From the IMG/VR virus record IMGVR_UViG_3300045988_072432: a stretch of DNA of 64,000 nucleotides; one strand, written 5' to 3'. This DNA comes from a virus. The notes beneath the pieces are model-generated. The model ran no database searches and was not told where the DNA came from. It saw nothing but the letters and a program-made list of their open reading frames with translations. Numbering within the stretch: position 1 is the first letter of the stretch; each line of letters opens with the position of its first letter. Both the position numbers and the translations under genes were made by a program. Shown here piece by piece: positions 47,764 to 63,287 of this stretch.

Positions 47764-49476
47764 TTATAGTAATTGGTACTTACTCAGGCCTTGGGTCTTT
47801 TCCACTTGCAGGATTTTGGTATTACCGAGAGGAAGTGAATCCAAGTGGGTTATCAAGAATAAAGTTTTCTCTTTGAATATGTGACGTATCAATGATGTAA
47901 CTACTTCTACATTATCTGAACTTAAAGATTCGAATACCTCATCAAGGAATGCAATATTAATACCCTTAGATGCTATGAGAGATTCATTCATGGCAAAAGC
48001 CATTGCTACATTACATAATTGTTTTTCACCTCCCGAAAGTTCATCATAATCCATAATCATCCCATCCCTTTCTATTAGAGTAACAAAATCTTTTCTTGCA
48101 GTTCCCAGGTCTATATTGAACTCTATTCTAAACCCAAGTACCTCTGAATACTTGTCCAGAGTTCTATTAAGGAATTCAAGAGATGAATCGAAGAGATAGG
48201 CCTTAATCCCATTATTACCAAGAGGGTCATTAATTAACCAATTATAATTCTCTAACTCTAATTCTTTGTTATGAAAATCCTCATCAACTTTCCGTAAGTT
48301 TTTCCTAATCTCTTTAAGCTTCTGTTTATACTTGGGAGACATGACCTTAAGCTTTTCCTGTTTGAGCTTGGCCAAATCTTCTTCAATAGAAGCAAGGTCA
48401 TCAGCAATATCATCACAATCAGATTTCAATTTCTTATATCGTTCATCCACGTTCTCTAATTCTTCCAACCTATCTTGGGCTTTTGAGTATTTCTTCTCAT
48501 ATTTTTCAATATCAGAGAACGCATTATATATTGATTTAGCATCTCGTAATGCACGTTTGTAGTTACCTCCTTCTAACTGTATTACTAATTCCTTAATGAC
48601 CTCTTTGAGAGATACATTGGATATCTTCTTAGCATTATTCAATTTACCCCTGATATCAGAGATTAATTTGTTCTGATTTTTAATCTTAATCTTTATAGAA
48701 GCATCTACCTCATCTTTAATCTGTTTTTGTTTTTGTATCAGTAACTTGGTTAGTTTCTCCCTATCTTGCTTCAAGGATTTCCTTTCTTCTCTGTTCTTCT
48801 TCTTAAAGGACTTCTCTCTATCTCTTAAGTCGAAGTAAGCCTCCTTGTTTGCCTCTAATTCTTTCTTTAATAATTGAGATTGATGCTCTACCTCATTTAT
48901 CTGGGCCACTATATTATTTTTATCTTGTAATGCAATGCCTTTGGCAAGGTTTAAGAATTCTAAATCAAATACTTCTTCGAATATCTTTTTCTTATCAGAA
49001 TTAGATTCTTGTATTAATCGTTTGATGCCCTGACCAAACATTATAGAATTCATAAACAGAGTATATGATAAACCTATCTCTCGGTTTATGGCATCTTGTA
49101 TCTTACCCTTACACTTGATGTCAATTATATCACCATCTTTGATGAATACTAATCGGTCTTTGCCCTTTGCACCATCCTCAAGTACTTCTTCATATTTTTG
49201 ACATCGGATAATCTTATAAGTATGGGTGTCTTTTTGGAAGAATACCTGGACCATAGTCCCCTTGTAATCTTTGGGTCTTACTTCCTTCCAGGTATTTACA
49301 TCAGATACACCCTTTAGATTTTTCCCATATATTGCCCATACTAATGCCGATAGAATAGTTGATTTCCCTTTCCCATTTGGTGCCTTGATAAGGATGGTAC
49401 AAGTTGGATTTAGTTGTAGATGCAGGGTTTCTATTGAACAAAAACCCACTACATCCATATTCATAAAACTTAGCAT
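47764..49476 (-). CDS. sbcC: SbcC/Rad50-like ATPase
   Basis: Walker A APNGKGKST, central coiled coil, signature LSGGEKQL, Walker B IAFLDEVF. Confidence 0.85.
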   Translation of the reverse strand: MLSFMNMDVVGFCSIETLHLQLNPTCTILIKAPNGKGKSTILSALVWAIYGKNLKGVSDVNTWKEVRPKDYKGTMVQVFFQKDTHTYKIIRCQKYEEVLEDGAKGKDRLVFIKDGDIIDIKCKGKIQDAINREIGLSYTLFMNSIMFGQGIKRLIQESNSDKKKIFEEVFDLEFLNLAKGIALQDKNNIVAQINEVEHQSQLLKKELEANKEAYFDLRDREKSFKKKNREERKSLKQDREKLTKLLIQKQKQIKDEVDASIKIKIKNQNKLISDIRGKLNNAKKISNVSLKEVIKELVIQLEGGNYKRALRDAKSIYNAFSDIEKYEKKYSKAQDRLEELENVDERYKKLKSDCDDIADDLASIEEDLAKLKQEKLKVMSPKYKQKLKEIRKNLRKVDEDFHNKELELENYNWLINDPLGNNGIKAYLFDSSLEFLNRTLDKYSEVLGFRIEFNIDLGTARKDFVTLIERDGMIMDYDELSGGEKQLCNVAMAFAMNESLIASKGINIAFLDEVFESLSSDNVEVVTSLIRHIFKEKTLFLITHLDSLPLGNTKILQVEKTQGLSKYQLL

Positions 49477-50444
49477 GACTCTACCTTTTTAAGTGTTTCT
49501 ATTAATAGGTTCGATTTAACCTTATCATTGATACCTTTCTCTTTTAAGTACCTCTTTGCTAGTGACTTCTTAGAAAGTTGCTTAGTAATCTTATGTTTGT
49601 TATTAACGGGAGTACTAGTTTTCTTGGGAATCACAGTATAATAATTGCCATCATCTTTAATATCTTCCTCAGATTCTACATCAATGAATTTCGGGAATTC
49701 CCTTAAAGGGATGAACTTCATTGATAGGTCCTCATATATTTTCCAATAACCCAATTCGCAATCTCTATCGGTTCTTCTTTGATGGTTAGTTGCCCCAATC
49801 ATATAGACCTTTTTCGAAAGTCTTTGAGGTTTATGAATATGTCCACATAATACTAAATCGAACTTATTGAGAAGGTTAACATTAAGATTCTCTACAGAAT
49901 CTATTTCCCTACCATCGGTGTCCTTTGCTCCTGGATAATCCGTGTGTAGTAAAAGTATATTCTTAAGACTTTTATCTAATTCAATATTCTTTAAATATTC
50001 ACTTAGACCGACATTATTATCAATATAAGGTACACCATATACTTTTATATCCTTATGATTAGAAGATAAGATAGCAGACCCATAATCTAATATATAAATC
50101 CCATACCTTTCTACTCTATAAAGCCAGCTATAGGGAGGTGTACCAGCTTTACTTACCTTCTTGATGTCATGATTCCCTGAAATAGCGTATACCCATAGAG
50201 GGTCATAATCATTGTACTTATTAAATTCTTTATAGCATATCTCATCAAGTTCTTGGTCCATATTCTCGGGCTTATGAAATAAGTCCCCACAGAATAAAGC
50301 TGGGCAATTATACTTCCTACATTGTTTTTGTATAATCGACAAAACCCTGAAACTATTCAGGGTCCTGTGATTATTCTCATTGAACTTAGCCCAGAGATTA
50401 ATATGCAAATCTGAAAAGGCTATTGCTATTACTTCTTTCCCCAT
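49470..50444 (-). CDS. sbcD: SbcD/Mre11-like nuclease
   Basis: Metallophosphoesterase motifs in order: FSDLH, GDLFH, GNHD, LLLHTD, GHIH. Confidence 0.85.
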   Translation of the reverse strand: MGKEVIAIAFSDLHINLWAKFNENNHRTLNSFRVLSIIQKQCRKYNCPALFCGDLFHKPENMDQELDEICYKEFNKYNDYDPLWVYAISGNHDIKKVSKAGTPPYSWLYRVERYGIYILDYGSAILSSNHKDIKVYGVPYIDNNVGLSEYLKNIELDKSLKNILLLHTDYPGAKDTDGREIDSVENLNVNLLNKFDLVLCGHIHKPQRLSKKVYMIGATNHQRRTDRDCELGYWKIYEDLSMKFIPLREFPKFIDVESEEDIKDDGNYYTVIPKKTSTPVNNKHKITKQLSKKSLAKRYLKEKGINDKVKSNLLIETLKKVESC

Positions 50445-51016
50445 ATCCTATCTAAATGGTAATTGATTTGTTCCGTTCTCATACCTAAATCGAGCTCAGA
50501 TATACAAATAGTGGGTATTTCCCAATTTGCAAGCAATTCCCCCATAAGAGATGATATCTGAACTTGGAAGAATCTGTTAAGTATTCTCTTACCATTATCT
50601 TCCATTGACCAATGCTTATAAGTATCTAGATTTAATGGTAAGAAGATTGCTACATCACATTGATCTTCCATTAAAGTCTTACATTGACAGAAAAAATGTT
50701 CCATTTCACATTCTGGTAAAGTTCTTGATTGCTTATACCAAAAATAAGCAGCCAAATCTGCATAACTCCTATCAGTTACAAAGTATTCTCTATCCTTGAA
50801 TAACCTATTCCTTTTGTTCAGAAGTTGAAAATCTGCTTTATACATTGCCTCCGAACCGAGGGATAATATTTCATTATGTGATACCCCTTCAGTAGCAGGT
50901 AATAAATCTGACATACTACCAGAAATAAAAGGTAGATCTTCTCTCTTAGCTACATACTTAGCTAAAGTAGTTTTCCCTATACCTGAGGGACCTACAAACA
51001 TTATACGTTTACTCAT
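50429..51016 (-). CDS. P-loop nucleotide kinase-like protein
   Basis: GPSGIGKTTLAKY resembles the guanylate/dNMP-kinase-type P-loop. 195 aa. Confidence 0.4.
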   Translation of the reverse strand: MSKRIMFVGPSGIGKTTLAKYVAKREDLPFISGSMSDLLPATEGVSHNEILSLGSEAMYKADFQLLNKRNRLFKDREYFVTDRSYADLAAYFWYKQSRTLPECEMEHFFCQCKTLMEDQCDVAIFLPLNLDTYKHWSMEDNGKRILNRFFQVQISSLMGELLANWEIPTICISELDLGMRTEQINYHLDRIWGKK

Positions 51017-51881: not shown

Positions 51882-52063
51882 ACTCTAAAATCGAATTCAT
51901 AAAGTGAAACTTCTTGAATCTTTTCGTTACCAAGATAGATATCAAGATAATTCTCAGCAGAACTATAAGCATCTAAGTATCTAACTCTTGGTTCAATTCT
52001 CAAATTCTTTTTAAGGTATTCTTTAATTACTTTCTCTATACCCTCTACCTCCTTTTTATTCAT
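51878..52063 (-). CDS. small hypothetical protein
   Basis: 61-aa ORF coupled on both sides. Confidence 0.4.
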   Translation of the reverse strand: MNKKEVEGIEKVIKEYLKKNLRIEPRVRYLDAYSSAENYLDIYLGNEKIQEVSLYEFDFRV

Positions 52064-53207
52064 CTTCTACCTCCTCTTCGTCTTCCGATTCGTTAAATGA
52101 TTCATATTCTACTCCATCTACTGGATATAAATTAGTAGTCAATGCTACTATCTTCTTTCTAGTTGTACCGATAGTATTTATCTCGGCCTTCTTTAATAGT
52201 TTACGACGAAGTTCATCATCCTCTTCCAAAAGCTTTTGGAATTTCTCTTCCCCTCTTGCAAGAGTTTTTCCTTTGAACTTATATACTCCACCTGAAGATT
52301 TTTCTATGATATCATTTTCTACCAATACATCCTCAAGAGCATAGCATCTATCAAAACCTACTTCATGGAACTTAGGATTGAAGTAAACCGGGCACTTACT
52401 GATTGTAGGTCTTGGAGGAGCAACCTTATTTTTAATAAGTCGGATTGTGACCAATTTACCAGCTTTCCGTTCTTTACCTTTCTGTTTAACAGTGATAGAC
52501 CTGCCTGAGTAAAAGGCAGCTCTGATTGAAGCGTAGAACTTAAGTGCTGCACCTCCTGTAGTAGTTGTGTTATCTTTTCCGAATCCGACATTTAAAGCAG
52601 TTCTTAATTGGTTAATGTAAATCTGTGTAACTCCTAATCTATAGAATAGTTCACTTCTGATACGGAAGTATTTGTAAAGAGCTTTTGCTCTACCTCCCAT
52701 TTCAGCCTTACCCTCTACCATTTTAGAATCTATGTTATCTGCACAATCCATAGCAGCAATAGAATCTATCACTAAGAGAATCGGTTCATTATTAGTTAAT
52801 TGAGAACGAAGATAGATTGCTAAGTCTGCTACAGCATCAGAAATATATTCTATACGAGTATCATTTAATACTGTAACTCTTTCTGGGTCTACTCCATTAA
52901 TTTCTGCCCAAGAGTTCATCCAAGATTGTTCGGCATCTACCCATATGACATGTCCTCCGAGTTGTTGACAAGTATATGCAAAGTTATAGGCAATAAGAGA
53001 TTTACCAGATGATTCTTCTCCAGCTACTTCTAAAATTTTACCGAATGGTATACCACCACCAAAGGTATAGTTGAGAGCAAAGAAGGTTGATGGCAACCAT
53101 AGATTTGATTCTACAGTTTCTGAAGCCAATCTCATCATGCCCCCATATTTCTTTAATATCTCATTTTTTGTTGGTACCTTTAAACCCACTTTCGATTTCT
53201 TTGCCAT
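52056..53207 (-). CDS. recA: RecA/UvsX-like recombinase
   Basis: GGIPFGKILEVAGEESSGKS (Walker A), LLVIDSIAAM (Walker B), INQLR...TTTGGAALKFYASIR, IKNKVAPP. Confidence 0.85.
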   Translation of the reverse strand: MAKKSKVGLKVPTKNEILKKYGGMMRLASETVESNLWLPSTFFALNYTFGGGIPFGKILEVAGEESSGKSLIAYNFAYTCQQLGGHVIWVDAEQSWMNSWAEINGVDPERVTVLNDTRIEYISDAVADLAIYLRSQLTNNEPILLVIDSIAAMDCADNIDSKMVEGKAEMGGRAKALYKYFRIRSELFYRLGVTQIYINQLRTALNVGFGKDNTTTTGGAALKFYASIRAAFYSGRSITVKQKGKERKAGKLVTIRLIKNKVAPPRPTISKCPVYFNPKFHEVGFDRCYALEDVLVENDIIEKSSGGVYKFKGKTLARGEEKFQKLLEEDDELRRKLLKKAEINTIGTTRKKIVALTTNLYPVDGVEYESFNESEDEEEVEDE

Positions 53208-53291: not shown

Positions 53292-54098
53292 TTAAATATC
53301 CGATTTGTATTTTCTTTTCTTTTTCTTGGGTTCATCGTCTTCCATGTAATGGTCTTTGTGAACTCCCTTTTTCTTTTTCTTCTTTGGATTATCTTCCTCA
53401 TCATCACCGTGGTCTTCATTTAGATACTGTGAAAGTAAATCTTCCAACTCATCATAGGATTTGATTTGAGAACGAACTATACCCTCAAGGTCAATTGTAC
53501 CTTGATATTTCTTGTCCAACTTAGTTGGTTTGCAAGCACGAGCAGAATAAGTGGTGTCTAGTTTACCAGACCCTGAACGTATTATCTTAATATCATAACC
53601 AGTTTTTGGGTCGGTCATATCACCTGCCTCATCTTCATCAAGGTATAGGTCAATGATATCCTGGTATACTGAGCGAGGAACTAAAACTCCCTTATCTTTG
53701 CCTTCATAATCTACCTTACTACCCTTTTCATCTGAATAGATTATACCACCAATAACATATCTTCTTCTTGGTACCAGATTCTTGGCAAGTTCCTTGTCGT
53801 CTTCATCCTTAGAGTTTTTCAATTCTTGATACTTCTCCATAAATGGGCAAGGTTCATCAAAAGTAGCCGGAGATATAACTCCTCCCAAATTGCCTCCCAG
53901 GTAGAATTGAATAATTTCGATACCCAATTCTTGGTCATCACCAGGAGACTTAATTCTCATTCTCAGAGTTCCTTCTTTTGGATATACTAACCCACTACCA
54001 TTTCCCTTAGATTCTAGCTGTTTCTTTCTAGCTAGCATCTTTTCTTTTGTAGAAAGTCCCTCTGATGAAACTTTCTTTTTCTTCTTATCTTTTATCAT
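53292..54098 (-). CDS. gp32-like single-stranded DNA-binding protein (putative)
   Basis: Basic N-terminus, OB-like core whose blocks are colinear with T4 gp32 as I recall it (…LRMRIKSPGDDQ…, CPFMEKY, RRRYVIGGII), acidic/basic C-terminal tail. Next to recA. Confidence 0.55.
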   Translation of the reverse strand: MIKDKKKKKVSSEGLSTKEKMLARKKQLESKGNGSGLVYPKEGTLRMRIKSPGDDQELGIEIIQFYLGGNLGGVISPATFDEPCPFMEKYQELKNSKDEDDKELAKNLVPRRRYVIGGIIYSDEKGSKVDYEGKDKGVLVPRSVYQDIIDLYLDEDEAGDMTDPKTGYDIKIIRSGSGKLDTTYSARACKPTKLDKKYQGTIDLEGIVRSQIKSYDELEDLLSQYLNEDHGDDEEDNPKKKKKKGVHKDHYMEDDEPKKKKRKYKSDI

Positions 54099-54103
54099 AA
54101 TGA

Positions 54104-54496
54104 TTAATTTTGATTGTTCGGTTCTGAATAGACTACCTCATTCATACTCAATACGGTAAGAACGTTTTTCTCTAAGATCTTTTGAAGAGCAGGAGATAAT
54201 TTATCTGTTTCGAATTCAAGTTCTTTACCCGCATACAAACCATAGGTAACTATCCTACCTATGCCCACCAATTCCCGATAGGTTTTATATTCTTCTGTAA
54301 TCTCCCCACTCTTTACTACAACTCCTTTACGAGGAACTCCCTCTTTTACTTGTTCAGGGATAATCAAACCCGATTTAGTTTGGTTTACCTCCTTTGGAGA
54401 TAAAATAAGTACCCGGTTTTCTGTAGGGCATCCAGGTAATTCTTGATTAAATTTCTCAGCCACAAGAGGTGAGATAAATGTCATTGAATAATTCAT
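54104..54496 (-). CDS. GroES-like co-chaperonin
   Basis: NRVLILSPKEVNQTKSGLIIPEQVKEGVPRKGVVVKSGE...GRIVTYGLYAGKELEFE...VLTVLSMNEVV is colinear with GroES. Confidence 0.55.
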   Translation of the reverse strand: MNYSMTFISPLVAEKFNQELPGCPTENRVLILSPKEVNQTKSGLIIPEQVKEGVPRKGVVVKSGEITEEYKTYRELVGIGRIVTYGLYAGKELEFETDKLSPALQKILEKNVLTVLSMNEVVYSEPNNQN

Positions 54497-55472: not shown

Positions 55473-55682
55473 TTATGTAGACATAGTATCCTCTCTTTTC
55501 GCTTCTGTAGTGGATTTAGCATTATCTTTATGATGAAGATACCTATTGCAACCTGGGCATTTAACCAATTTACAATCAGCAAAAGTATGTGAATCCACTT
55601 CTGAATAATCATACTCAAATTCACAATCACAGTATGGGCACTTAGCTCGCCATACAGTGGGTCCGTTCAAAATCTTTTTCAT
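55473..55682 (-). CDS. zinc-ribbon protein
   Basis: CPYCDC...CPGCN, 69 aa. Confidence 0.5.
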   Translation of the reverse strand: MKKILNGPTVWRAKCPYCDCEFEYDYSEVDSHTFADCKLVKCPGCNRYLHHKDNAKSTTEAKREDTMST

Positions 55683-56251
55683 TTCCTTAGTTTTATGTTA
55701 TTACATCGTAATATTTTATATAATACCCCAGTTGATATACCGAATTCTTCCAGTATATCTTTTCTAGGTATACCCTCTATATACATAGAAATTAATAATT
55801 CTACATTTACCTTACGTTCTCGTTCTTTACCCACAAAATAAAATCTTTTATCTTCTATACATTGACCAATGTTCATCTTAGCTGTGCCCCAATATAAATT
55901 ACTTACTCGATTATTCTCTGGATTATTATTTTTATGACATACTTGAGGATAATTGTTTGGGTTAGGGATGTAAATAGAAGCAACTAACCTATGTCTATAA
56001 AAGTTCTTCCGTTTACCCTCGTCTCCTACTAAAGAGTTAGATAAATAACCATTATCTTTCATAGCGGGTTTTACTAATTTCCAACTACCAGTAAATTTCG
56101 AGTATAATTTTCCAGTACGTGATATGTAATAATTACTAAACCCAGGTATATTACCCTTTTCTCGATTTTTCATATTCTCGTTGATATTTATGGATTTCCT
56201 TTTTATATAGTTCCATAAATACTTCTGGTGAAGCTGCACTAAAATTACCAA
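55679..56251 (-). mobile_element. free-standing HNH homing endonuclease (NUMOD4/HNH_3-like + C-terminal HTH)
   Basis: IPGFSNYYISRTGKLYSK, HRLVASIYIPNPNNYPQVCHKNNNPENNRVSNLYWGT. Likely start at M27 (56173). Paralog of 62239..62745. Confidence 0.75.
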
Positions 56252-59200
56252 TTTTACGATTCTTAAACTTATGATATTCCTCCATGTACTCTTCTACCGA
56301 AAAGTCTGGTTTTAACATTCTAGTATAATCATATCCTGGAATAAAAGGTAATTCTTCTGCCATTGACCGGCCTATTGTAAAATCCATTGATAGAGTTACA
56401 TCATCCACTTGAAAACCAAAATATTTCTTAGTACTAGGGTTTCTCAATATATCCCATATTTTAAAAACAGTCCAAGTATTAATATATTCAGGCTTTGAGT
56501 AAAAATAGGCTGCATCATGAACAGTTGCTACTTCAAGCATACGGGGTAATTTACCTTGTCTCATTAACCAATAAACAAGGATAGCTCCAAAATTAGTCAT
56601 ATTTGCTGCAGCACCCTGGCAATTACCCGTGATTAAAGTTCTATATCGTTTATCTTCACCAATTACCCTTGTAAAGAAAGCTCCAGATTTTACAGTAGGA
56701 CACCATACTTTACCTACATACTTCTCTTTCGTTAAATTATTCTCTGAATTGTAAGTATTCTTGGTGTTTACTGATTTCCTAAAATTAGAGAATTTTACTC
56801 CATAACTAGTTTTAGTGGCCCGTACAAACTCTTGACCATATTTACTTGGTTTCTTATCTTTAAAATAAGATATGTCACCTTCATGTGATAATTCATACAT
56901 ACTTGAGGTGTTGTTACAAAGTACTACCAAAGCCTGAAGTAATTCTCCTTGAGTTTTATCTCCGGTTGCCCATATCGACCAACCATCCCCTAATCTCATA
57001 TTCTCTAATAAGATACTTAATTGAGGGTTAGTTAATCGAGTTAATAACTTCATATTTAACTTACGTTCAGGAACTAACCTATTAAGTTTATAAACAAATC
57101 CTGGGTCTCTTATTTCCCATATCACTTGATTCTTTTCTCTACGGGAGAATTCTACATCTAATTCTTCCATAATAGAATCAATAATATCTACCTTGTGAGG
57201 ATTTGCAGTATTACTCTGACATATTCTTACTATGTTACCATTCTTCAGATGACCATCAGTAAGATACCAACCTAAAAAAGCTACATAAGCATCCGAATAT
57301 CTAGCTTTCACTTGATTATTATGAGGAGCTCTTATTGGGATAGCATAAGGTTTATCTGAATTGTATAATTCTTCAGAAGTTAATACTTCGGTATTATCTA
57401 ACTTAGATATCTTATTTGGTTTAGTAACTACCCATCTATGGTCTGGGGTTGATAATACGTCTAGATGTTTTGTCTTTAACCTAATCATATCTCCATCATA
57501 ATCAAATACATTTACCCTTTCAACCTTTTGCCATTCTGATTCTCCTATATCCCGATTAAAAGCTAATATCTCATCACCAACCTTTAAATCTTCATAGTTT
57601 ACCCATCCCTTAGTTTTACTAAGAGCCTGAGATGATGGTAATAAGCAAGGAAAATTAAGTCCCAAACGGATGGCATAAGCAACTTCTTGTTTATCATTTG
57701 AGTATATTTGTGGTAATCTTCTCTTAGTACCAAATAACTGAGTATAATACCCATGCTTACGAAGGAATTTCTCTTGCTTCTCTTTGAACTTAAGTATCTT
57801 TGGATGTTTCTCAAAGAACTCTGCCATTTCTTTATGGGCTTCTTCTTTAGTAACTATAATACCAGCTTTTGGGTCGGATAGTTTTACTGCAAGTAAAGCT
57901 TCCCCAATACCATAAATCAAACCGAATGCAATTTGCTTAGCTTGTTTTCTTCTAGTCTTCCATAGTTTATGGTCTGGATGATTTTCATCTTCATATATCC
58001 TAGATGCTTCTTCAATTGATACCCCATATTTTGCTGCTGCTATACCCAAGTGAGGGTCAGCCCCCTTTGCAAAAGCATCAAGATAAGTTTCATCACCTGA
58101 TAAGTGTGCCATCATTCTTAACTCTGCTTGAGAGTAGTCAAATGCCATATATAGATATCCAGGAGGGGCAATCAATTGTTTCTTGATATTTGGGTCTACT
58201 GATGTCTTAGGTATCTGCTGCATATTTGGGTCTGCAGAACTAAATCTATTAGAATCTGTACCGTGTATATTATACCTACCATGTAATCGGGAATCATCTT
58301 GTACTTTTTCCCACCATCCATAAATATAGGTCTTATACATTTTCTCTAACCCTCGTAATTCAAGAAGCTTATCAAGAAATATTGCCTTTGGTGAATCTTG
58401 CTTTTTAATTGTTAGCCTAAGATTAGTAAGAGTTTCTTCATCAGTACTTGGTTTACCAGATTCATTATCCTTAATTACATCGAAATGAAAACCATCTTCT
58501 GAATACATCAATGCAGGTAAATCAACGGGACTACCCAAATTAATAGGTCTTATTAGTTCTTGTTCTTTTTTAGTTGTGAATATACCTGCTTTGATATTTG
58601 AAATTTTCTGTTCCCTTGATGCAATCTTCCGTTTATCCTTTGGGTCATTATAATCTAACTCTTCAAGTTCTGATTCGATAGATTGAATATACTTATCAAT
58701 CTTTTCTTGGTTATACTTCTTTTCGAATTTCTTTACTCTTGGCAAAGCATATATTGCGTCTCTAGCAGCATCTATTTTTGGCTTATATTCTTCTAAAAGT
58801 TTTTTATTGAACTCAGTATCTAGATATAAACCTTCTTTCTCTACCGAAGTAAGTACTCGTGAATTACACATAAATAAATTACGGAATACCGAATACATAC
58901 CCAAGTCAACCAACTTCTTTTCAAAAAATATCATTAACCTAAGAGTATAATCCGTATCTTGACAACCGTAATGACAGAGTGAATCCAATTCCTTTTTATC
59001 CCATGGTATCTTATCAAAGGCATCTTGCTTTTCATAATTACCATACTCTGGTAAATATCTTCTTACCATTGACTTTAAGTCATGAGGTTTTTCCTCGTTG
59101 AGAACATATTTAGCAAGCATCCCATCTAAACATGTACCTCTGTAGAATATCTGATACTTCTGATTTATCTGATCATCAAATTTCCAGTTCCATGCAACCT

Positions 59201-59486
59201 TAGTTATCTCATAATTCTCGATTACCTCTTCCCCAAATTTCCTTAACATCTTCTTCCAGTTCCACCCAGGTGAAGTATATTCTTTTGTTTGGAAATGGTC
59301 TAAGGGAATAGAAGCACCAAATCCTGGCATCCAAGATACTGAAAGTATGGTTGGCTTAAAACTTTTGTTGTATATTGGTTCTGCATTTGTTTCATAGTCA
59401 CAGCAAGCATAACCAGTAGCTTTACAACAAGCAATAAGTTTTTTAAGCTCTTTCTTGTTTTTTATTATTGTATACCGTGTCTCCAT
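56151..59486 (-). CDS. polA: family A DNA polymerase with 3'-5' exonuclease domain, interrupted by an intein
   Basis: Exo I CCDYETN. Motif A FDYSQAELRMMAHLSGDE. Motif B RRKQAKQIAFGLIYG. Motif LNFP//CQGAAAN split by the intein. Motif C VHDA. Confidence 0.9.
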   Translation of the reverse strand: METRYTIIKNKKELKKLIACCKATGYACCDYETNAEPIYNKSFKPTILSVSWMPGFGASIPLDHFQTKEYTSPGWNWKKMLRKFGEEVIENYEITKVAWNWKFDDQINQKYQIFYRGTCLDGMLAKYVLNEEKPHDLKSMVRRYLPEYGNYEKQDAFDKIPWDKKELDSLCHYGCQDTDYTLRLMIFFEKKLVDLGMYSVFRNLFMCNSRVLTSVEKEGLYLDTEFNKKLLEEYKPKIDAARDAIYALPRVKKFEKKYNQEKIDKYIQSIESELEELDYNDPKDKRKIASREQKISNIKAGIFTTKKEQELIRPINLGSPVDLPALMYSEDGFHFDVIKDNESGKPSTDEETLTNLRLTIKKQDSPKAIFLDKLLELRGLEKMYKTYIYGWWEKVQDDSRLHGRYNIHGTDSNRFSSADPNMQQIPKTSVDPNIKKQLIAPPGYLYMAFDYSQAELRMMAHLSGDETYLDAFAKGADPHLGIAAAKYGVSIEEASRIYEDENHPDHKLWKTRRKQAKQIAFGLIYGIGEALLAVKLSDPKAGIIVTKEEAHKEMAEFFEKHPKILKFKEKQEKFLRKHGYYTQLFGTKRRLPQIYSNDKQEVAYAIRLGLNFPCLLPSSQALSKTKGWVNYEDLKVGDEILAFNRDIGESEWQKVERVNVFDYDGDMIRLKTKHLDVLSTPDHRWVVTKPNKISKLDNTEVLTSEELYNSDKPYAIPIRAPHNNQVKARYSDAYVAFLGWYLTDGHLKNGNIVRICQSNTANPHKVDIIDSIMEELDVEFSRREKNQVIWEIRDPGFVYKLNRLVPERKLNMKLLTRLTNPQLSILLENMRLGDGWSIWATGDKTQGELLQALVVLCNNTSSMYELSHEGDISYFKDKKPSKYGQEFVRATKTSYGVKFSNFRKSVNTKNTYNSENNLTKEKYVGKVWCPTVKSGAFFTRVIGEDKRYRTLITGNCQGAAANMTNFGAILVYWLMRQGKLPRMLEVATVHDAAYFYSKPEYINTWTVFKIWDILRNPSTKKYFGFQVDDVTLSMDFTIGRSMAEELPFIPGYDYTRMLKPDFSVEEYMEEYHKFKNRKIGNFSAASPEVFMELYKKEIHKYQREYEKSRKG
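56622..57647 (-). mobile_element. intein (342 aa) with LAGLIDADG-type endonuclease
   Basis: Residues 614-955 of the polymerase. It starts with Cys (CLLPSS), has block B STPDHRW and LAGLIDADG-like FLGWYLTDGHL and LLENMRLGDGWS, and ends ...LITGN followed by the +1 Cys. Removing it restores NFP-CQGAAAN (the NxPIQG motif). Confidence 0.75.
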
Positions 59487-59540: not shown

Positions 59541-60275
59541 TTAATACTTCTCTTGTAAATCTTCCAGATTGGATGATAATGCTAACCAATCCTTCTTATA
59601 AGCATGAAGAGAATCAATAGTATGATACAGATAACCGGGTTTAACCCCAACCTCTTTAGCTACGTATTCCATAAGTTTCCATGCAAGGTATATATCATTA
59701 CCAAAGTGAGTAATAAAATCCGAACTTCTTTGGTGATAGCAAATATGTAATACCTTCTCCCCCTTACCATTCTGACGAATAAGAAAATCATAATACATAG
59801 AGCAAGGAATACGTTGTCTACCACCATAGTATAAGGTATCATCATGATCAAATATTGGTATAATTGCTTTTCTTGTATCTGGGTCTCTCTTTAAAAGACG
59901 AACTAAATCTTTTATTAATACTTCACCCATTCTCTCATTGTATGTGTAATCGAACATACCCTTATCATCAAGGAATTGTTCCCATAAATCTTTTCTTAAT
60001 TTCCAAGCTTCTCCTGGATTTATATCATTAGGGGATATTCTTTCTTGGAACTCTGCATCTGCCCATTCTCTTGAATGAGAGAATACGAATAACCATACCG
60101 GGTCTCCCAATGAAGTTAAGCAATATTGTTGGCAAATGAGTTCTTTAGTAATAAAATCCTCATTACCTTCAATGACTTTATTTTGATAGGTCTTTGGTTT
60201 TACAAGTTGACCATAACTATTGAGTTCTCTGCCCATTTCGGACATTAACTCAAAACTGTTAGAATATATCCTCAT
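59541..60275 (-). CDS. ThyA-family pyrimidine deoxynucleotide hydroxymethylase/methylase (dCMP-hydroxymethylase-like)
   Basis: LLKRDPDTRKAII, catalytic IPCS, HQRSSDFITHFGNDIYLAW, DSLHAY. Asp sits where thymidylate synthases have the dUMP-specifying Asn. 244 aa. Confidence 0.65.
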   Translation of the reverse strand: MRIYSNSFELMSEMGRELNSYGQLVKPKTYQNKVIEGNEDFITKELICQQYCLTSLGDPVWLFVFSHSREWADAEFQERISPNDINPGEAWKLRKDLWEQFLDDKGMFDYTYNERMGEVLIKDLVRLLKRDPDTRKAIIPIFDHDDTLYYGGRQRIPCSMYYDFLIRQNGKGEKVLHICYHQRSSDFITHFGNDIYLAWKLMEYVAKEVGVKPGYLYHTIDSLHAYKKDWLALSSNLEDLQEKY

Positions 60276-60288
60276 ATTATATAAATAT

Positions 60289-60483
60289 TTAACTGTATGA
60301 CATTGTAGAATTAACCCAGGTCATATGCCAGTAGCGAAATACAAAATTATCGAAATCCTCTACCTCTTTCATTAACAAGGGTATATCTGGTTCTGCACCG
60401 TTCTTTTTAATCTCTAAAACTTGGTAATAAAATTTGTTTACTAATCCTATCCGCTTCTGATTTAAAAATTCCCTAGCTTCCAT
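60289..60483 (-). CDS. small hypothetical protein
   Basis: 64-aa ORF between the two ThyA-fold candidates. Confidence 0.4.
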   Translation of the reverse strand: MEAREFLNQKRIGLVNKFYYQVLEIKKNGAEPDIPLLMKEVEDFDNFVFRYWHMTWVNSTMSYS

Positions 60484-61396
60484 TGTTGTTCTTTTGTTTT
60501 AAAAGTTTCTTCTTATAGGCTTTACGTTGAGAGTAAGAAATTACATTCTCGGGATATTCAATATCTTCGTATTCAAGAAGTAATTCTTTTGCTTTCATTG
60601 ATTTATATGTTTCTTCATATAAATCTGGTCTGAGCACTTTAAAACTTCTAAAGAATACCTTGAATGAAGAGAATTCCTTCTCTGTACCCTTTTGGAATTT
60701 CTTCCATATCTCTTTTATTCTCTTATTCCAAGCATTCTCTTCTGCCCCCTTAAGTACCTTCTTCAATGGCTTATGGGTATGATACATTAGAAGTGTCTCC
60801 ACATTTCCGTACATTTGAGTCGCGAATAGGTTGATTTGTACTGACTGATCCGGACCATATACGTACTCTGACATTCGTTGAATTAATAGGAAATCGAATA
60901 TTAACCTCTTGGTAATCTCCGAAGCCCGAACTACCATTGTAATAACTGGGATGTCCTCCCCGAATCGTTTTGAAAAAGTCGCTGCTATTAGACATTGCTT
61001 TCCGTTATCATGATGATTGTTAAACATATAGGTTATATTGTAATTCTGATTGTACTTATTTCTCAGTACTCTCAGTTTACTACGCAACAAGTCAAGCTTA
61101 TTAAAGTCTATGTAGTTATTCAATAAGCTAGTCCACTTAGTTTCTTTATAATTGAAACATCTCCCATAATCAAATTCTGGGTCTACCCAGGCATTGCGTA
61201 TCTTTATGAATACGTTATACACTACTGCTACCCCACTATTGGCAATAGCCCCCTTTGCAAATAAAGCAGGCTCTAATCTTAGGAATCCCTCATTGAGTTT
61301 TTCCCATGCTTCTTGTGAGGTAGCAAATTCTAACGAATGGAGGGACTCCTCCGGATTAAGTTGAAGTCCCTCTAATTTATGGTTCCATCCTGACAT
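60473..61396 (-). CDS. hypothetical protein, possibly a second divergent ThyA-fold enzyme
   Basis: Track ORF trimmed to MSGWNHK: the ATG at 61396 follows the upstream TAA by 1 nt. GKQCLIAATF ... VVRASEITKRLIFDF ... is weakly colinear with the PC / RSxD / ND blocks. Confidence 0.5.
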   Translation of the reverse strand: MSGWNHKLEGLQLNPEESLHSLEFATSQEAWEKLNEGFLRLEPALFAKGAIANSGVAVVYNVFIKIRNAWVDPEFDYGRCFNYKETKWTSLLNNYIDFNKLDLLRSKLRVLRNKYNQNYNITYMFNNHHDNGKQCLIAATFSKRFGEDIPVITMVVRASEITKRLIFDFLLIQRMSEYVYGPDQSVQINLFATQMYGNVETLLMYHTHKPLKKVLKGAEENAWNKRIKEIWKKFQKGTEKEFSSFKVFFRSFKVLRPDLYEETYKSMKAKELLLEYEDIEYPENVISYSQRKAYKKKLLKQKNNNGS

Positions 61397-61397
61397 G

Positions 61398-62285
61398 TTA
61401 ATAATTAGTTTGTTGCCTCCATCTATTGAGACGCTGTTTTTTAAAGAATAAACTGAATAACCCTTGGTCTGTGAACCCATTCAATGCAAGGAATCCCATA
61501 TATAGGTAGAAAGCTTTTACCAGTGATTCCTGGAAGTCTATCTCTTTAGTCATTACTTGGGTTTGTTTCCAAGGTCTAGACTTAAGGAAATTCCTTGCCT
61601 TGTTCAATTCATATATCACTTCCCATAAGTATAACTTCTCTGCCTCATGTGATAATTCATTCATCTTATGAAAACCAGGGATGTAAGAGATGATTTGTTC
61701 CCATTTACCACCTTCATCAAAAAAATCCTCTTCACAAATAATATCGAATTTCAATAAATTCTGGTAGTCGGAATATTTTACCACTAACTCTTTAACACCC
61801 ATAGCCATCACATCAAATAAGTTCTTTGCCTTATTATAGCTAAGAATATCTTCAGGAAGTATATTTGAATATACTAGAAGAGTAAAGAAAAAGCCTAAAG
61901 CATCTGCTTGTTCTTCATTTGCATTAGCAAGAGAATTCAATATCAATTGACATTCATTTTCATTGAACATCTCGATATTCCAACCATTCTTCTGACATAA
62001 TTCAAATACTTCTTCGGTAGATTCAAAACCCTCGGTAAGTTCTTCAATTACCCTACCTATAAAGTCCTTGAGTATTACCTGGTTCTTTGCATTATTGATA
62101 TCAAATGGGTAATCAGGTAACTGTTCTATTTGCCTATATCCATGCAATTGTTCTAACCCCAATTCATACATCTTTGATAGTACCCAATTAGTTTCTACTT
62201 TAGGTACTGGTTCACTTATATTTCTTATATCCAAAATGTTAACTTTTATAATGTTTACCATTAAGATAATTACCAACAGTAGCAT
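61398..62285 (-). CDS. all-alpha NTP pyrophosphatase (MazG / dimeric dUTPase / T4 gp56 dCTPase-like)
   Basis: IEELTEGFE and EEQADALGFFF (ExxE...ExxD). The C-terminal half has YELNKARNFLKSRPWK...LVKAFYLYMGFLALNG...FFKKQRLNRWRQQTNY, like the family's WK and K..N..RQ..Y ends. Start uncertain (62285, 62261 or 62171). Confidence 0.55.
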   Translation of the reverse strand: MLLLVIILMVNIIKVNILDIRNISEPVPKVETNWVLSKMYELGLEQLHGYRQIEQLPDYPFDINNAKNQVILKDFIGRVIEELTEGFESTEEVFELCQKNGWNIEMFNENECQLILNSLANANEEQADALGFFFTLLVYSNILPEDILSYNKAKNLFDVMAMGVKELVVKYSDYQNLLKFDIICEEDFFDEGGKWEQIISYIPGFHKMNELSHEAEKLYLWEVIYELNKARNFLKSRPWKQTQVMTKEIDFQESLVKAFYLYMGFLALNGFTDQGLFSLFFKKQRLNRWRQQTNY

Positions 62286-62745
62286 TACTAACCTTCAACC
62301 TTTTAGCTATGTACTTGTTAGTATTACCTTTTAATTTCAATCTCCCTAATCTTCGAATACTACGTACTGTTAATGAAGTATGAGGAGCAAATAGACCTCT
62401 TCTACTTACTCCATACATAGGATTATTTATACCTTTTAATTTCAACCCACCCTTATTAATGGCATCATATACATTATCTTTTTGAGTACCCCATTTAAGG
62501 TTCTCTAAACGATTATTCAAAGGGTTGTCATCTAAGTGCATTACTACTGGTAAATTATTCGGATTAGGTATATAGGCTTCTGCTACTAATCTATGTATTT
62601 TTACATTCTTAGATACCTTATTATTTCTAAGTTTAGTACGTTCGTATCCTTTATGGAAGAAAGTCTTTACGGGATGTCCCTTATTATAAAGCTTACCCTC
62701 CCGAGTAATATGATATCCTGGGAATCCTAATATATTATCTTCCAC
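62239..62745 (-). mobile_element. free-standing HNH homing endonuclease
   Basis: ILGFPGYHITREGKLYNK, HRLVAEAYIPNPNNLPVVMHLDDNPLNNRLENLKWGT, C-terminal HTH. Inserted between the dUTPase and NTP-PPase genes. Confidence 0.75.
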
Positions 62746-63287
62746 TATTTTATGTTTTGAGATGAACCAAATCCCTTATCTCCTCTACTTCCCCACATTT
62801 GAGACTCAGTATAGAATTCTTCTTGTTGAATCTCTTCTGGCTCTGTGATGTAGATGGGAACATGTATGAACTGTACAAGCTTCTTGCCACATTCGATAAC
62901 TTGAGCCTTATTAGAAGCATTATATACTCCGATATGTATCTCTCCTACATAGGGAGAATCTACTATCTCAGCTGTAAAGAGTAAACCTTGCTTAGTGGCT
63001 ATACCTGACTTATTAGCAGCCATTAACATAGAGGCAGGTGGTTCAAGCAATCCCATGATACCAGAGGGGATAAGTATACGATGTCCAGGTTTTAAAGCTA
63101 TATGCCTTACAAAGGCTTCACCAAAAGGAACATCTAAATCATAACCTTCGGAGTCGAATTCATTTTTAGAATGAATATGCTCTGGGTATAAATCAGTTGG
63201 TACATAAAAATCTAACCCAGCATCATTGGGGTTTGCTCTGTTTGGAGATATTACCTCCCTTACTTTGATAAATTTGAATCTGTTCAT
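62745..63287 (-). CDS. dut: trimeric dUTPase
   Basis: Motifs in order: AGLDF, ANKSG, IVDSPYVGEI, KLVQFI, SRGDKGFGSS. Confidence 0.85.
   Translation of the reverse strand: MNRFKFIKVREVISPNRANPNDAGLDFYVPTDLYPEHIHSKNEFDSEGYDLDVPFGEAFVRHIALKPGHRILIPSGIMGLLEPPASMLMAANKSGIATKQGLLFTAEIVDSPYVGEIHIGVYNASNKAQVIECGKKLVQFIHVPIYITEPEEIQQEEFYTESQMWGSRGDKGFGSSQNIK

Follow-up and report, generated by a model that had tools for sequence, protein, structure and literature searches.

[quoted passage not shown] ThyL carries an aspartate of the dCMP type at the pyrimidine-specificity position, and therefore the phage probably replaces the cytosine of its DNA with a modified base. The likeliest product is 5-hydroxymethyl-dCMP. 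The complete proposal, namely, a folate-dependent, dCMP-specific enzyme that forms this product within a T4-like pathway, is about as likely as not.

The assignment to the superfamily is evident from sequence and structure. The translation of the ORF, which contains RIPCSMYYDFLIRQ and HQRSSDFITHFGNDIY, is matched by Pfam PF00303 (Thymidylat_synt) with 54.1 bits at a cut-off of 24.3 (E 1.6e-14) and by phrog_160, 'thymidylate synthase', at 2.9e-28. The AlphaFold2 model of ThyL has a pLDDT of 97.1, and a Foldseek comparison of the model with the PDB yielded 396 matches at E<=1e-3. The best 50 of these 396 matches are all ThyA-fold proteins, and the top matches comprise MilA, HY126 AfhB, thymidylate synthases, and T4 dCH.

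The preliminary description had placed an Asp of ThyL, in an ungapped alignment, where E. coli ThyA has N177, and the placement holds in every alignment that was made. ThyL was aligned with T4 gp42 and E. coli ThyA by BLASTP, by MAFFT, and by hhalign with a 112-sequence family profile. The QRS..ND block has zero gaps with all three methods, and Asp194 of ThyL is always equivalent to D179 of gp42 and N177 of ThyA. The preliminary description had named, as the result that could overturn this placement, a gapped profile alignment in which the specificity position is taken by the Asn of GND; profile alignments were made, and in none of all the alignments does the Asn fall there. Further equivalences are Cys158, the nucleophile, with C148 of gp42 and C146 of ThyA, Asp186 with D171 and D169, and Asn193 with N178 and F176. 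The residue number of the catalytic Cys, 158, is a small correction to the earlier account, in which the strand, minus, was unstated. Asp194 is invariant in all 124 representatives of 50%-identity clusters and in all 112 rows of the family alignment (A1), and this invariance argues for selection rather than for the tolerance of a chance substitution. N177D is an established determinant of dCMP specificity and marks cytosine-modified contigs (PMC8670742; PMC13326640). Because ThyL has Asp at this position, dCMP is the expected substrate and not dUMP.

The neighborhood of ThyL contains candidates for additional steps of nucleotide modification. Directly downstream lies the gene for DNA polymerase I (PolA; 56151..59486, minus strand), an intein-bearing protein of 1111 aa, compared with 765-769 aa in close relatives; the PolA proteins of the related contigs L005-L007, which are annotated with DNA_pol_A_exo1 and DNA_pol_A, have 769, 765, and 1111 aa. 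A small ORF of 64 aa (60289..60483, minus strand) separates ThyL from the gene for protein X (60473..61396, minus strand). The small ORF has no Pfam or PHROG match, and a 64-aa gene is found at the same place in the three contigs L005-L007. Protein X has 307 aa when the start of the related contigs is used, while the mechanical ORF extends to 61480 and has 335 aa. The next gene (61398..62285, minus strand) encodes a dUTPase_2-type pyrophosphatase of 295 aa, a homolog of dimeric dUTPases and all-alpha NTP pyrophosphatases that is a candidate dCTPase/dUTPase and T4 gp56 analog. It is matched by PF08761 at 8.9e-4, under the Pfam cut-off, and by phrog_12184, 'nucleotide pyrophosphohydrolase', at 9e-19. 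In BLASTP it matches the PF08761 proteins that adjoin ThyL in the related loci L010 and L011 (2.6e-18 and 1.5e-17), which match the C-terminus of T4 gp56 at 2e-4 to 1e-3; direct BLASTP against T4 gp56 gave no match, and the link runs only via such intermediate dUTPase_2 homologs. An HNH homing-type endonuclease (62239..62745, minus strand; PF13392 at 6.6e-9, phrog_59 at 1.8e-40) is located between two pyrophosphatase genes and is probably a mobile passenger outside the pathway. It is followed by a trimeric-type dUTPase of 180 aa (62745..63287, minus strand; PF00692 at 6.6e-15, TIGR00576 at 1.6e-18, under its cut-off). A thymidylate-kinase-like P-loop kinase of 195 aa (50429..51016, minus strand) is a candidate dNMP kinase for modified dCMP; it is matched by phrog_2107, 'thymidylate kinase', at 7e-9 and by the 'thymidylate kinase' of phage Serbin at 1e-4 (BLASTP). 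This kinase gene is about 8.5 kb away from ThyL, whereas in other phages the kinase is adjacent to the module.

Most of this gene arrangement is conserved. Related loci were retrieved with an alignment ordered around distant members of the family. The usual order of the module is a dNMP-kinase-like protein, the gp56-like dUTPase_2, X, ThyL, often a dCMP-type deaminase, and PolA, and it is repeated in the cultured phages Serbin, Strzyga, and CPD4. The ThyL homologs are labelled 'thymidylate synthase' in the records of these three phages and in JGI records. A dUTPase_2 homolog is present in 79 of 80 diverse loci and a kinase homolog in 50 of 80, usually 1.3-2.6 kb upstream of ThyL, and a deaminase of the dCMP_cyt_deam_1/MafB19 type adjoins ThyL in 50 of 80; all three are co-oriented with ThyL. 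The gp56-like, gp1-like, and ThyA-like folds, candidates by homology, are thus strongly co-localized, and the module would parallel the cytosine-replacement pathway of T4 if the neighbors had the enzymatic roles of their analogs. Related phages contain a separate ThyX (a cluster in 9 loci, and also L012) or a co-resident canonical ThyA with L143, N177, and an ...IPVAI tail (L156, L175), which argues that ThyL is not the dTMP synthase of the phage.

T4 gp42 (dCH; PDB 1B5D, 1B49, 6L18) and ThyL have the same fold (Foldseek E about 1e-12) and similar sizes (246 and 244 aa). Common to both are Thr or Ser after the catalytic Cys, a (Y/F)LIR strand, a short C-terminus, and an ungapped RS(N/S)D...ND block with the specificity Asp. 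In addition, ThyL is surrounded by genes of the dCTPase, kinase, and deaminase types, which the T4 pathway also has. The T4 record agrees with the gp42 features given in the preliminary description, namely, MRSNDVVFGFRNDYAW, YLIRD following the Cys, and a length of 246 aa. Its view that ThyL is nearer to gp42 than to ThyA can be retained for the motifs, which are really gp42-like, and for the coverage in hhalign, but the scores of the family profile are equal (gp42, prob 98.3, E 1.6e-14, 173 columns; ThyA, prob 98.6, E 6.8e-16, 129 columns). By structure, Foldseek ranks MilA and the HY126 dCMP hydroxylase above T4 dCH. The identity with gp42 is only about 22% (BLASTP), ThyL is not an ortholog, and it belongs to a large phage clade. 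The glucosyltransferase of the T4 system has no counterpart around ThyL, and the T4 genes are dispersed, whereas ThyL-type modules are mostly clustered, apart from the distant kinase in the window. The invariant Arg155 of ThyL replaces the water activator Asp145 of gp42, and Ser94, Gly175, and Lys28 of gp42 are replaced by Tyr110, His190, and Asn38. Hydroxymethylases have a published signature that combines an Asp/Glu at the third position ahead of the Cys with a Ser/Thr at the second position ahead of the catalytic Tyr; the D145N variant of T4 dCH is inactive (PMC6400193). ThyL has Arg155 and Tyr110 at these two positions, and therefore its product is not assignable by homology to gp42. The gp42-like, dCMP-specific reading that had been put forward is consequently supported with respect to dCMP by the position of the Asp, but it was too specific with respect to gp42.

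The best structure match of ThyL is the CMP 5-hydroxymethylase MilA (PDB 5B6D, 5JNH; Foldseek E 2e-15, TM 0.75-0.77 on query). Both enzymes share Asp177, the FLIRD strand, and, as regards ThyL itself, Lys at the R127 position. However, MilA has 318-342 aa and Asp three residues before the Cys, compared with 244 aa and Arg in ThyL, and it has Ala at S167 (motif MRAND) and favors ribo-CMP, whereas Ser184 is invariant in the ThyL family. The combination of Ala at S167 and Lys at R127 that defines the MilA type is therefore not found in ThyL.

The active site combines conserved and unusual residues. Cys158, the catalytic Tyr112 (Tyr94 of ThyA), and the phosphate-site residues Arg183 and Ser184, at the positions of Arg166 and Ser167, are invariant in the family, and His224 (H207) is invariant as well. 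Tyr226 (Y209) is Tyr or Phe throughout the representatives, Glu75 at the Glu58 position is kept in 117 of 124, and Asp186 (D169) in 121 of 124. Of the four arginines with which ThyA binds phosphate, R21 and R127 are not conserved; at the R127 position (136 in ThyL) ThyL has Lys and 91 of the 124 representatives have Gln. Within 6 A of C5, the family differs from every characterized class at three positions, all of which are invariant or nearly so: L143 is replaced by Arg155, three residues before Cys158 (124 of 124 representatives, and Arg in 80 of 80 further loci), G173 is replaced by His190, and Tyr110 is found two residues before the catalytic Tyr (124 of 124). The position of ThyA H147 is occupied by Ser159, in agreement with the Ser/Thr of gp42, MilA, and AfhB, and not by His, as in ThyA, or Pro, as in Xp12. 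ThyL ends 18 residues past SLHAY, and the median tail in 80 relatives has 10 residues. The C-terminal tail of ThyA, for which a role in sealing the active site for hydride transfer has been described (PMC6400193), is thus absent, whereas ThyA and the Xp12 dCMP methylase (289 aa) keep a long tail. However, thymidylate synthases of the short methanogen type, whose model TIGR03283 is the top NCBIfam match of ThyL, end at the same point, and therefore the missing tail is no proof against methyl transfer.

From these features we infer the following reaction. Cys158 would add to C6 of dCMP, Asp194 would read and protonate the N3/N4 face of the cytosine, and the one-carbon unit of methylene-tetrahydrofolate would be transferred to C5. 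Because ThyL has no sealing tail and a polar C5 pocket (Arg155, Tyr110, His190), water would most likely trap the exocyclic methylene intermediate, and 5-hydroxymethyl-dCMP would be formed. In the cell, the dUTPase_2-type pyrophosphatase, as the gp56 analog, would convert dCTP to dCMP, ThyL would modify dCMP, the P-loop kinase, as the gp1 analog, would start the re-phosphorylation of the product, and the adjacent PolA would incorporate the modified nucleotide. The virion DNA would then contain C5-modified cytosine, which would blunt restriction. In this scheme the fold, the residue equivalences and their invariance, and the conserved module are observations, and the substrate, the cofactor, the product, and the roles of the neighbors are deduced from them. 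The retained Asp186 speaks for folate and against flavin as the cofactor. The missing tail, the Ser at H147, and the fact that the best structure matches are cytosine hydroxymethylase/hydroxylase members of the superfamily (MilA, AfhB) suggest the hydroxymethyl product. It is opposed by the Arg and Tyr in place of Asp/Glu and Ser/Thr, by the non-conserved R21 and R127, and by the existence of the tailless methanogen-type enzymes. Moreover, within 8 kb of ThyL in the 80 loci no glycosyl- or carbamoyltransferase or kinase needing a hydroxymethyl handle recurs, and the window ORFs that were scanned include no such glycosyl- or carbamoyltransferase. A C5-cytosine DNA methyltransferase is encoded in the window (21186-22244) and in 14 of 80 loci, abutting ThyL in L010 and separated from it by a single small ORF in L009 and L012, which would be odd if every cytosine were C5-substituted.

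Deaminases of the type that neighbors ThyL are linked to ThyA homologs that produce 5-methyl-dCMP: five of seven tested deaminase-linked Asp177 homologs made this compound (bioRxiv 10.1101/2024.12.05.627091). This result counts against 5-hydroxymethyl-dCMP and favors an alternative that we regard as unlikely on balance, namely, that ThyL is a dCMP methyltransferase of the Xp12/PaMx74 type. It would form 5-methyl-dCMP and lead to 5-methylcytosine DNA, and in relatives the deaminase would convert a fraction of the 5-methyl-dCTP to dTTP. Asp177 fits this reaction equally well, the Xp12 enzyme (QNN97214.1) also has RSSD...D with a non-acidic residue (Asn) three residues before the Cys, a deaminase neighbor in relatives is a further common feature, and no hydroxyl-using transferase recurs nearby. 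However, Xp12 TS, with 289 aa, has Gly at 173, Pro after the Cys, and a full ThyA-like C-terminal segment, while the ThyL family is devoid of this segment of about 50 residues common to Xp12 TS and ThyA. The Xp12 type, as defined from one characterized sequence, combines Asp177 with this segment, and ThyL has only the former. The C5 pocket of ThyL is polar (Arg155, His190, Tyr110) and not formed by Leu/Gly. Neither the scanned ORFs of the window nor the flanks in related contigs include a deaminase, and many relatives have their own ThyX or ThyA and therefore do not need a bypass to dTTP. The assayed enzymes, furthermore, are described as Xp12/PaMx74 homologs.

The three unusual pocket positions and the frequent presence of protein X point to another alternative, which in all its variants together is rather improbable: ThyL and X would produce some other C5-substituted dCMP, which may be new. 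X often accompanies ThyL, being encoded in 56 of 80 loci, always on the same strand and usually abutting ThyL. Its sole library match is phrog_34294, of unknown function, and searches of Pfam, NCBIfam, and PDB sequences gave no match; in BLASTP it matches gp74 of CPD4, directly upstream of CPD4 ThyL, at 1.8e-10. In an alignment of 65 sequences Cys135, Asp168, and Tyr95 are invariant, Arg157 is found in 60, and Glu160 is conserved. Cys135, Asp168, and Arg157 are in register with ThyA C146, N177, and R166, and hhalign aligned X with the ThyL family at E 1.2e-4 (controls, E 0.15-0.41), with a moderate probability of 55%. Foldseek of the AlphaFold2 model has HY126 AfhB as its top two matches (prob 0.90, 0.84), which is a hint only, because the model is poor (shallow alignment, pLDDT 53). 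Therefore, with moderate support, X is probably a very diverged second ThyA-fold protein. With a Cys and a putative cytosine-reading Asp of its own, X could re-activate the product of ThyL via C6 addition and exchange the substituent. T4 dCH reportedly forms the exocyclic methylene reversibly from its own product, according to 18O-exchange work, which is in favor of such a step. In other variants, ThyL and X would form a hetero-oligomer, or the Arg/His/Tyr pocket of ThyL would admit a nucleophile other than water. Against a joint product stand the absence of X from 24 of 80 loci, in which ThyL keeps an identical active-site signature, and the lack of a recurrent gene that would supply a co-substrate, except for an AsnB-like amidotransferase in 13 of 80 loci, which is absent from the window. 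The more far-reaching idea that the Arg155/Tyr110/His190 clade and X together perform a tandem ThyA-fold, pre-replicative hypermodification, with a C5 substituent other than methyl, hydroxymethyl, or hydroxyl, is quite doubtful.

It is very unlikely that ThyL belongs with the 5-hydroxy-dCMP synthases HY126 AfhB, RB69 gp48, and DLP3 gp80 (PDB 9IQU, 9IQC), which depend on flavin and O2. In favor of this identity, AfhB is the best PDB sequence match (9iqu/9iqc, identity taken from the Foldseek entry descriptions; E 9e-9) and the second-best structure match (Foldseek E 7e-14), and in tblastn the nearest T-even matches of ThyL belong to RB69-like Mosigvirus and Klebsiella phages. ThyL and AfhB both have Asp177, a short C-terminus, Cys-Thr/Ser, and an Arg at the third position past the catalytic Tyr. 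However, the 5-hydroxy-dCMP synthases carry a D169N signature (PMC13326640) and have Glu three residues before the Cys, where ThyL has Arg155. The D169N signature, which had not been considered before, was examined in ThyL, and Asp186 is retained; therefore, ThyL is not of this type and the identity was rejected. Genes for arabinose or other glycosylation were likewise not found among the window ORFs scanned. That ThyL is the ordinary thymidylate synthase of the phage, with a tolerated Asp, is extremely improbable and was rejected in spite of the PF00303 match and the GenBank labels on homologs, because Asn177, Leu143, His147, and the C-terminal tail were looked for and Asp, Arg, Ser, and no tail were found, ThyL scores far under all cut-offs of the NCBIfam thymidylate synthase models (at best 49.5 bits vs 174.55) and misses the equivalogs by >120 bits, the Asp is invariant, and relatives have a co-resident ThyX or canonical ThyA; that ThyL is not a canonical thymidylate synthase had already been proposed.

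Asp177 ThyA homologs are already a recognized marker of cytosine-modified phage DNA, and ThyL is a variant on top of this established idea, which limits the surprise. In the MetaGPA study (PMC8670742), positions 177 and 147 separate modified from unmodified contigs, and the same predictive logic is used here for ThyL. In such studies the homologs of modified contigs are accompanied by PolA, a deaminase, and an NTP pyrophosphatase (PMC8670742; bioRxiv 10.1101/2024.12.05.627091), the pyrophosphatase being PRA-PH (PF01503) there and dUTPase_2 at the ThyL loci. As far as the available texts go, they describe neither the clade with Arg three residues before the Cys nor protein X. A literature search found no assayed member of the Arg-type clade and no DNA-modification reports on C. 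perfringens phages, Serbin, or Flandersviridae.

If the prediction is correct, an abundant group of phages of the human gut with genomes of about 85 kb, whose protein clusters have thousands of member sequences, replaces cytosine with a modified base. This would bear on the escape from restriction and CRISPR in Bacteroidales, on the targeting by type IV systems and the sensing of phage DNA by the host, and on the recovery of these phages by sequencing libraries and restriction-based methods. [quoted passage not shown] The ThyL clade, in which Arg/Tyr together with His stand in place of the Asp/Ser dyad of T4 dCH, can thus serve as a natural experiment on how ThyA-fold enzymes determine what becomes of the exocyclic methylene intermediate.

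ThyL, the ThyA-like protein encoded at 59541..60275 (minus strand, 244 aa; carrying RIPCSMYYDFLIRQ and HQRSSDFITHFGNDIY), matches Pfam Thymidylat_synt with 54.1 bits (cut-off 24.3), and it also matches PHROG thymidylate synthase families. For comparison, the T4 gene 42 product (gp42) and E. coli ThyA were taken from annotated records. BLASTP aligned the QRS...ND block of ThyL ungapped to MRSNDVVFGFRND of gp42 and to QRSCDVFLGLPFN of ThyA. The same ungapped register was obtained by hhalign with the profile A1, built from 112 family members of which none exceeds about 67% identity to the query, against both gp42 (probability 98.3, 173 columns) and ThyA (probability 98.6, 129 columns). Accordingly aligned are Cys158 with gp42 C148 and ThyA C146, Asp186 with D171 and D169, Asn193 with N178 and F176, and Asp194 with D179 and N177. 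The Asp that the preliminary description had placed at the pyrimidine-specificity position of ThyA is thus confirmed, and none of the hhalign profiles was gapped in a way that would move the Asn of the GND motif to this site. Asp194 is invariant in all 124 family representatives (50%-identity clusters from an exhaustive HMMER search), and therefore chance or a sequencing error can be ruled out as its source.

N177D is a marker of dCMP use, and metavirome contigs with modified cytosine are best told apart from unmodified ones by this residue and position 147 (PMC8670742). Further rules concern the product. In T4 dCH, the residue three before the catalytic Cys (Cys-3) is Asp145; it activates a water molecule for attack on the methylene intermediate and forms a pair with Ser94, two positions ahead of Tyr96. 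The D145N variant is inactive, and an Asp/Glu plus Ser/Thr pair has been proposed as the hydroxymethylase signature, whereas ThyA has Leu at Cys-3 and closes the site for hydride transfer with its C-terminal tail (PMC6400193). The 5-hydroxy-dCMP synthases that depend on flavin and O2 are recognised by D169N (PMC13326640). The residues named in these rules or listed as lying within 6 A of C5 (PMC13326640) were tabulated for the 124 representatives. Invariant are Tyr112 (ThyA Y94), Arg155 (L143), Cys158 (C146), Ser184 (S167), Asp194 (N177) and also Tyr110, two residues before the catalytic Tyr; Trp98 (W80) is found in 122, Asp186 (D169) in 121 and His190 (G173) in 107. Ser159 (H147) is Ser in 109 and Thr in 15 representatives, Gln182 (Q165) is Met in 83 and Gln in 30, and Ser185 (C168) is Cys in 75, Ser in 23 and Asn in 10. 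By these residues the family conforms to the dCMP rule and not to the hydroxylase rule, and it fits neither the Asp/Glu of the hydroxymethylase signature nor the Leu of the methyl signature. Arg155, Tyr110 and His190 might form a polar stand-in for the Asp145/Ser94 dyad, a set that would be compatible with water addition. Two related loci encode a second, longer ThyA homolog (293-294 aa) beside the short one (L113:969-1850, L138:4911-5795), again with Arg at Cys-3 and Asp at 177 (RRPCT, MRSNDVINLLPYD), and therefore the Arg/Asp signature spans more than one clade.

An AlphaFold2 model of ThyL built on A1 was confident (pLDDT 97.1). Its best structural match in the PDB was the CMP hydroxymethylase MilA (E 2e-15), followed by the dCMP hydroxylase AfhB of HY126 (9iqu/9iqc, E 7e-14) and later by thymidylate synthases and T4 dCH (about 1e-12), while AfhB was the top PDB match by sequence (E 9e-9) and MilA the second. 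From both rankings it follows that ThyL is roughly equidistant from all characterised classes, and an assignment as a gp42 ortholog was rejected. The preliminary description was right about the substrate class, dCMP, and in denying that ThyL is a thymidylate synthase; its proposal of a gp42-like hydroxymethylase holds for the substrate class, but the replacement of the water-activating signature leaves the hydroxymethylase call insecure.

The genes around ThyL are all on the minus strand. In the order of that strand they encode a trimeric dUTPase (62745-63287), an HNH endonuclease (62239-62745), a 295-aa dUTPase_2 homolog by BLASTP (61398-62285; 2.6e-18 against dUTPase_2 proteins of related loci), protein X (60473-61396), a 64-aa ORF (60289-60483), ThyL, PolA with an intein (56151-59486) and, further downstream, a thymidylate-kinase-like P-loop protein (50429-51016). 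Contigs with an identical ThyL protein share this arrangement. The order kinase, dUTPase_2, X homolog, ThyL, (deaminase), PolA is found in the cultured phages CPD4 (C. perfringens), Serbin (Serratia) and Strzyga (Brevundimonas); local BLASTP linked X to CPD4 gp74 (1.8e-10) and the window kinase to that of Serbin (1e-4). The ThyL proteins of Serbin and Strzyga also have Arg at Cys-3 and lack the tail. Serbin, with kinase, dUTPase_2, X, ThyA-like protein and deaminase, is related to 9g-like phages without having their 7-deazaguanine (queuosine-type) cluster (PMC6509536), which looks as if one DNA-modification cassette had taken the place of another. HMMs from seed proteins were applied to 80 diverse IMG/VR loci with 40-63% identity to one distant family member. 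The dUTPase_2 homolog was present in 79, X in 56, mostly directly upstream of ThyL, and deaminase and kinase in 50 each, in every case on the ThyL strand. The dUTPase_2 proteins match the C-terminus of the T4 dCTPase gp56 (2e-4 to 1e-3, local BLASTP). Because dCTPase-like, kinase-like and deaminase genes around ThyL mirror the T4 set of gp56, gp1, cd and gp42, we propose by analogy a T4-like pathway around a putatively dCMP-specific ThyL with candidate partner enzymes. An AsnB-like glutamine amidotransferase (GATase_7 + Asn_synthase), absent from the window, is encoded in three related loci (L009:5977-7305, L011:12948-14468, L012:5993-7348) and recurs beside the module in 13 of the 80 loci (L096-L175); a further tailoring or nucleotide-amination step is possible.

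Protein X had no sequence match in Pfam, NCBIfam or the PDB. The mechanical ORF (60473-61480, minus strand, 335 aa) shares 83 bp with the end of the 295-aa gene upstream of it; adopted was the start 28 codons later, as called in three related contigs (307 aa, MSGWNHK). By eye, its motifs QCLIAATF, VVRASE and IFD resemble the Cys strand, the RSxD motif and the specificity residue of ThyA. Support by hhalign against the ThyL family rose with alignment diversity, from a probability of 0.6% for the single sequence over 1.9% (35 close homologs) and 23% (11 sequences including cultured-phage homologs) to 55% (E 1.2e-4) for 65 sequences with a median identity of 18%, and the register was constant throughout. 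E was 1.5e-3 against a canonical set (E. coli ThyA, Xp12 TS, gp42, RB69-like enzyme) versus 0.15-0.41 for unrelated families and a reversed alignment as controls. Paired with ThyA are Cys135 (C146), Arg157 (R166), Glu160 (D169) and Asp168 (N177); Cys135, Asp168 and Tyr95 are invariant in the 65 sequences, of which 60 have Arg157 and 52 have Glu160. The AlphaFold2 model was poor (pLDDT 53), yet it has the ThyA-core order strand-strand-helix-strand, and its two best Foldseek matches were AfhB (probability 0.90 and 0.84). Therefore, we consider it likely that X is a very diverged ThyA-fold paralog, and it probably represents an unrecognised branch of the thymidylate synthase fold. Homologs lie at L002:7208-7957, L015:5192-6001 (Serbin), L014:5165-6004 and L010:9006-9776.

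As product of ThyL we favour 5-hydroxymethyl-dCMP, a prediction to which we give an even chance. Formation of 5-methyl-dCMP would agree with the dCMP rule and is rather unlikely; Xp12 TS, the single characterised dCMP methylase compared, differs in having Asn at Cys-3, Gly at 173, Pro after Cys and a long ThyA-type C-terminal segment, which the ThyL family lacks. Equally doubtful is a different product, possibly involving the neighbouring X; loci that have X and loci that lack it share an identical active-site signature of ThyL, for which X is thus dispensable. The similarity to AfhB would suit 5-hydroxy-dCMP, a very improbable product for a family retaining Asp at 169. Synthesis of dTMP, suggested by the Pfam match, is the least credible: thymidylate synthase was rejected on Asp177, Arg at L143, Ser at H147 and an end 18 residues past SLHAY, ThyL (like gp42) scores more than 120 bits under every NCBIfam thymidylate synthase cut-off, and ThyL is not the dTMP synthase of its relatives because these encode ThyX (one cluster in 9 loci, plus L012) or canonical ThyA (Leu143, Asn177, IPVAI tail; L156, L175).

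One argument against complete replacement of cytosine by any C5 adduct is a C5-cytosine DNA methyltransferase encoded in the window (21186-22244, minus strand; PF00145, 2.8e-13), which would be puzzling if every C5 were substituted, and its presence may point to incomplete replacement or to another function. This family occurs in 14 of the 80 loci, abuts ThyL directly in L010 and is separated from it by one small ORF in L009 and L012. Near ThyL in the related loci no hydroxyl-using transferase was recurrent, which also argues against complete C5 replacement. In some 'Flandersviridae' the replication module contains inserted genes for an IspD-family nucleotidyltransferase and a LicD-family transferase, read by the authors as cell-wall related (PMC8008677); the pair is not in the window. 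It is pure speculation that, if these phages make 5hm-cytosine DNA, the two enzymes could instead use a CDP-activated donor to modify its hydroxymethyl group.

GenBank contained no phage close to the window at the DNA level, and the best protein matches were unannotated human-faecal phage records. The phage seems to resemble the 'Flandersviridae', a proposed family of Bacteroides/Parabacteroides phages (PMC8008677), in the size of related contigs (84-88 kb), GC content (33-39%), a weak BACON-domain match (PF13004, E 0.0018, under the Pfam cut-off), PolA and DnaB, and a long run of genes of unknown function. DNA modification is unmentioned in that paper (PMC8008677), and a literature search returned no paper tying a 'Flandersviridae'-like group to modified cytosine. 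A co-chaperonin gene (Cpn10/GroES-like, 54104-54496) neighbours gp32-like ssDNA-binding (53292-54098) and RecA/UvsX-like (52056-53207) genes, all on the minus strand, and with SbcCD-like genes (47764-50444) these make up a T4-like recombination-replication set in an 85-kb phage. PolA has 1111 aa in the window and in the related contig L007 and 765-769 aa in the otherwise near-identical L005 and L006, which points to an intein (about 340 aa) that carries a homing-endonuclease-like insert and is polymorphic in the phage population; in L010, Intein_splicing and LAGLIDADG_3 are annotated inside PolA. Two HNH_3 + HTH endonuclease genes (62239-62745 and 55679-56251, minus strand) lie in the nucleotide-metabolism/replication module, one wedged between two pyrophosphatase genes, and together with the intein they single out this stretch as a hotspot of selfish elements.

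ThyA homologs with Asp177 are already a textbook marker of modified phage cytosine, and therefore ThyL varies a known theme. The finding is of value because ThyL has an unusual active site and a cryptic partner, X, and is hosted by an abundant phage group.
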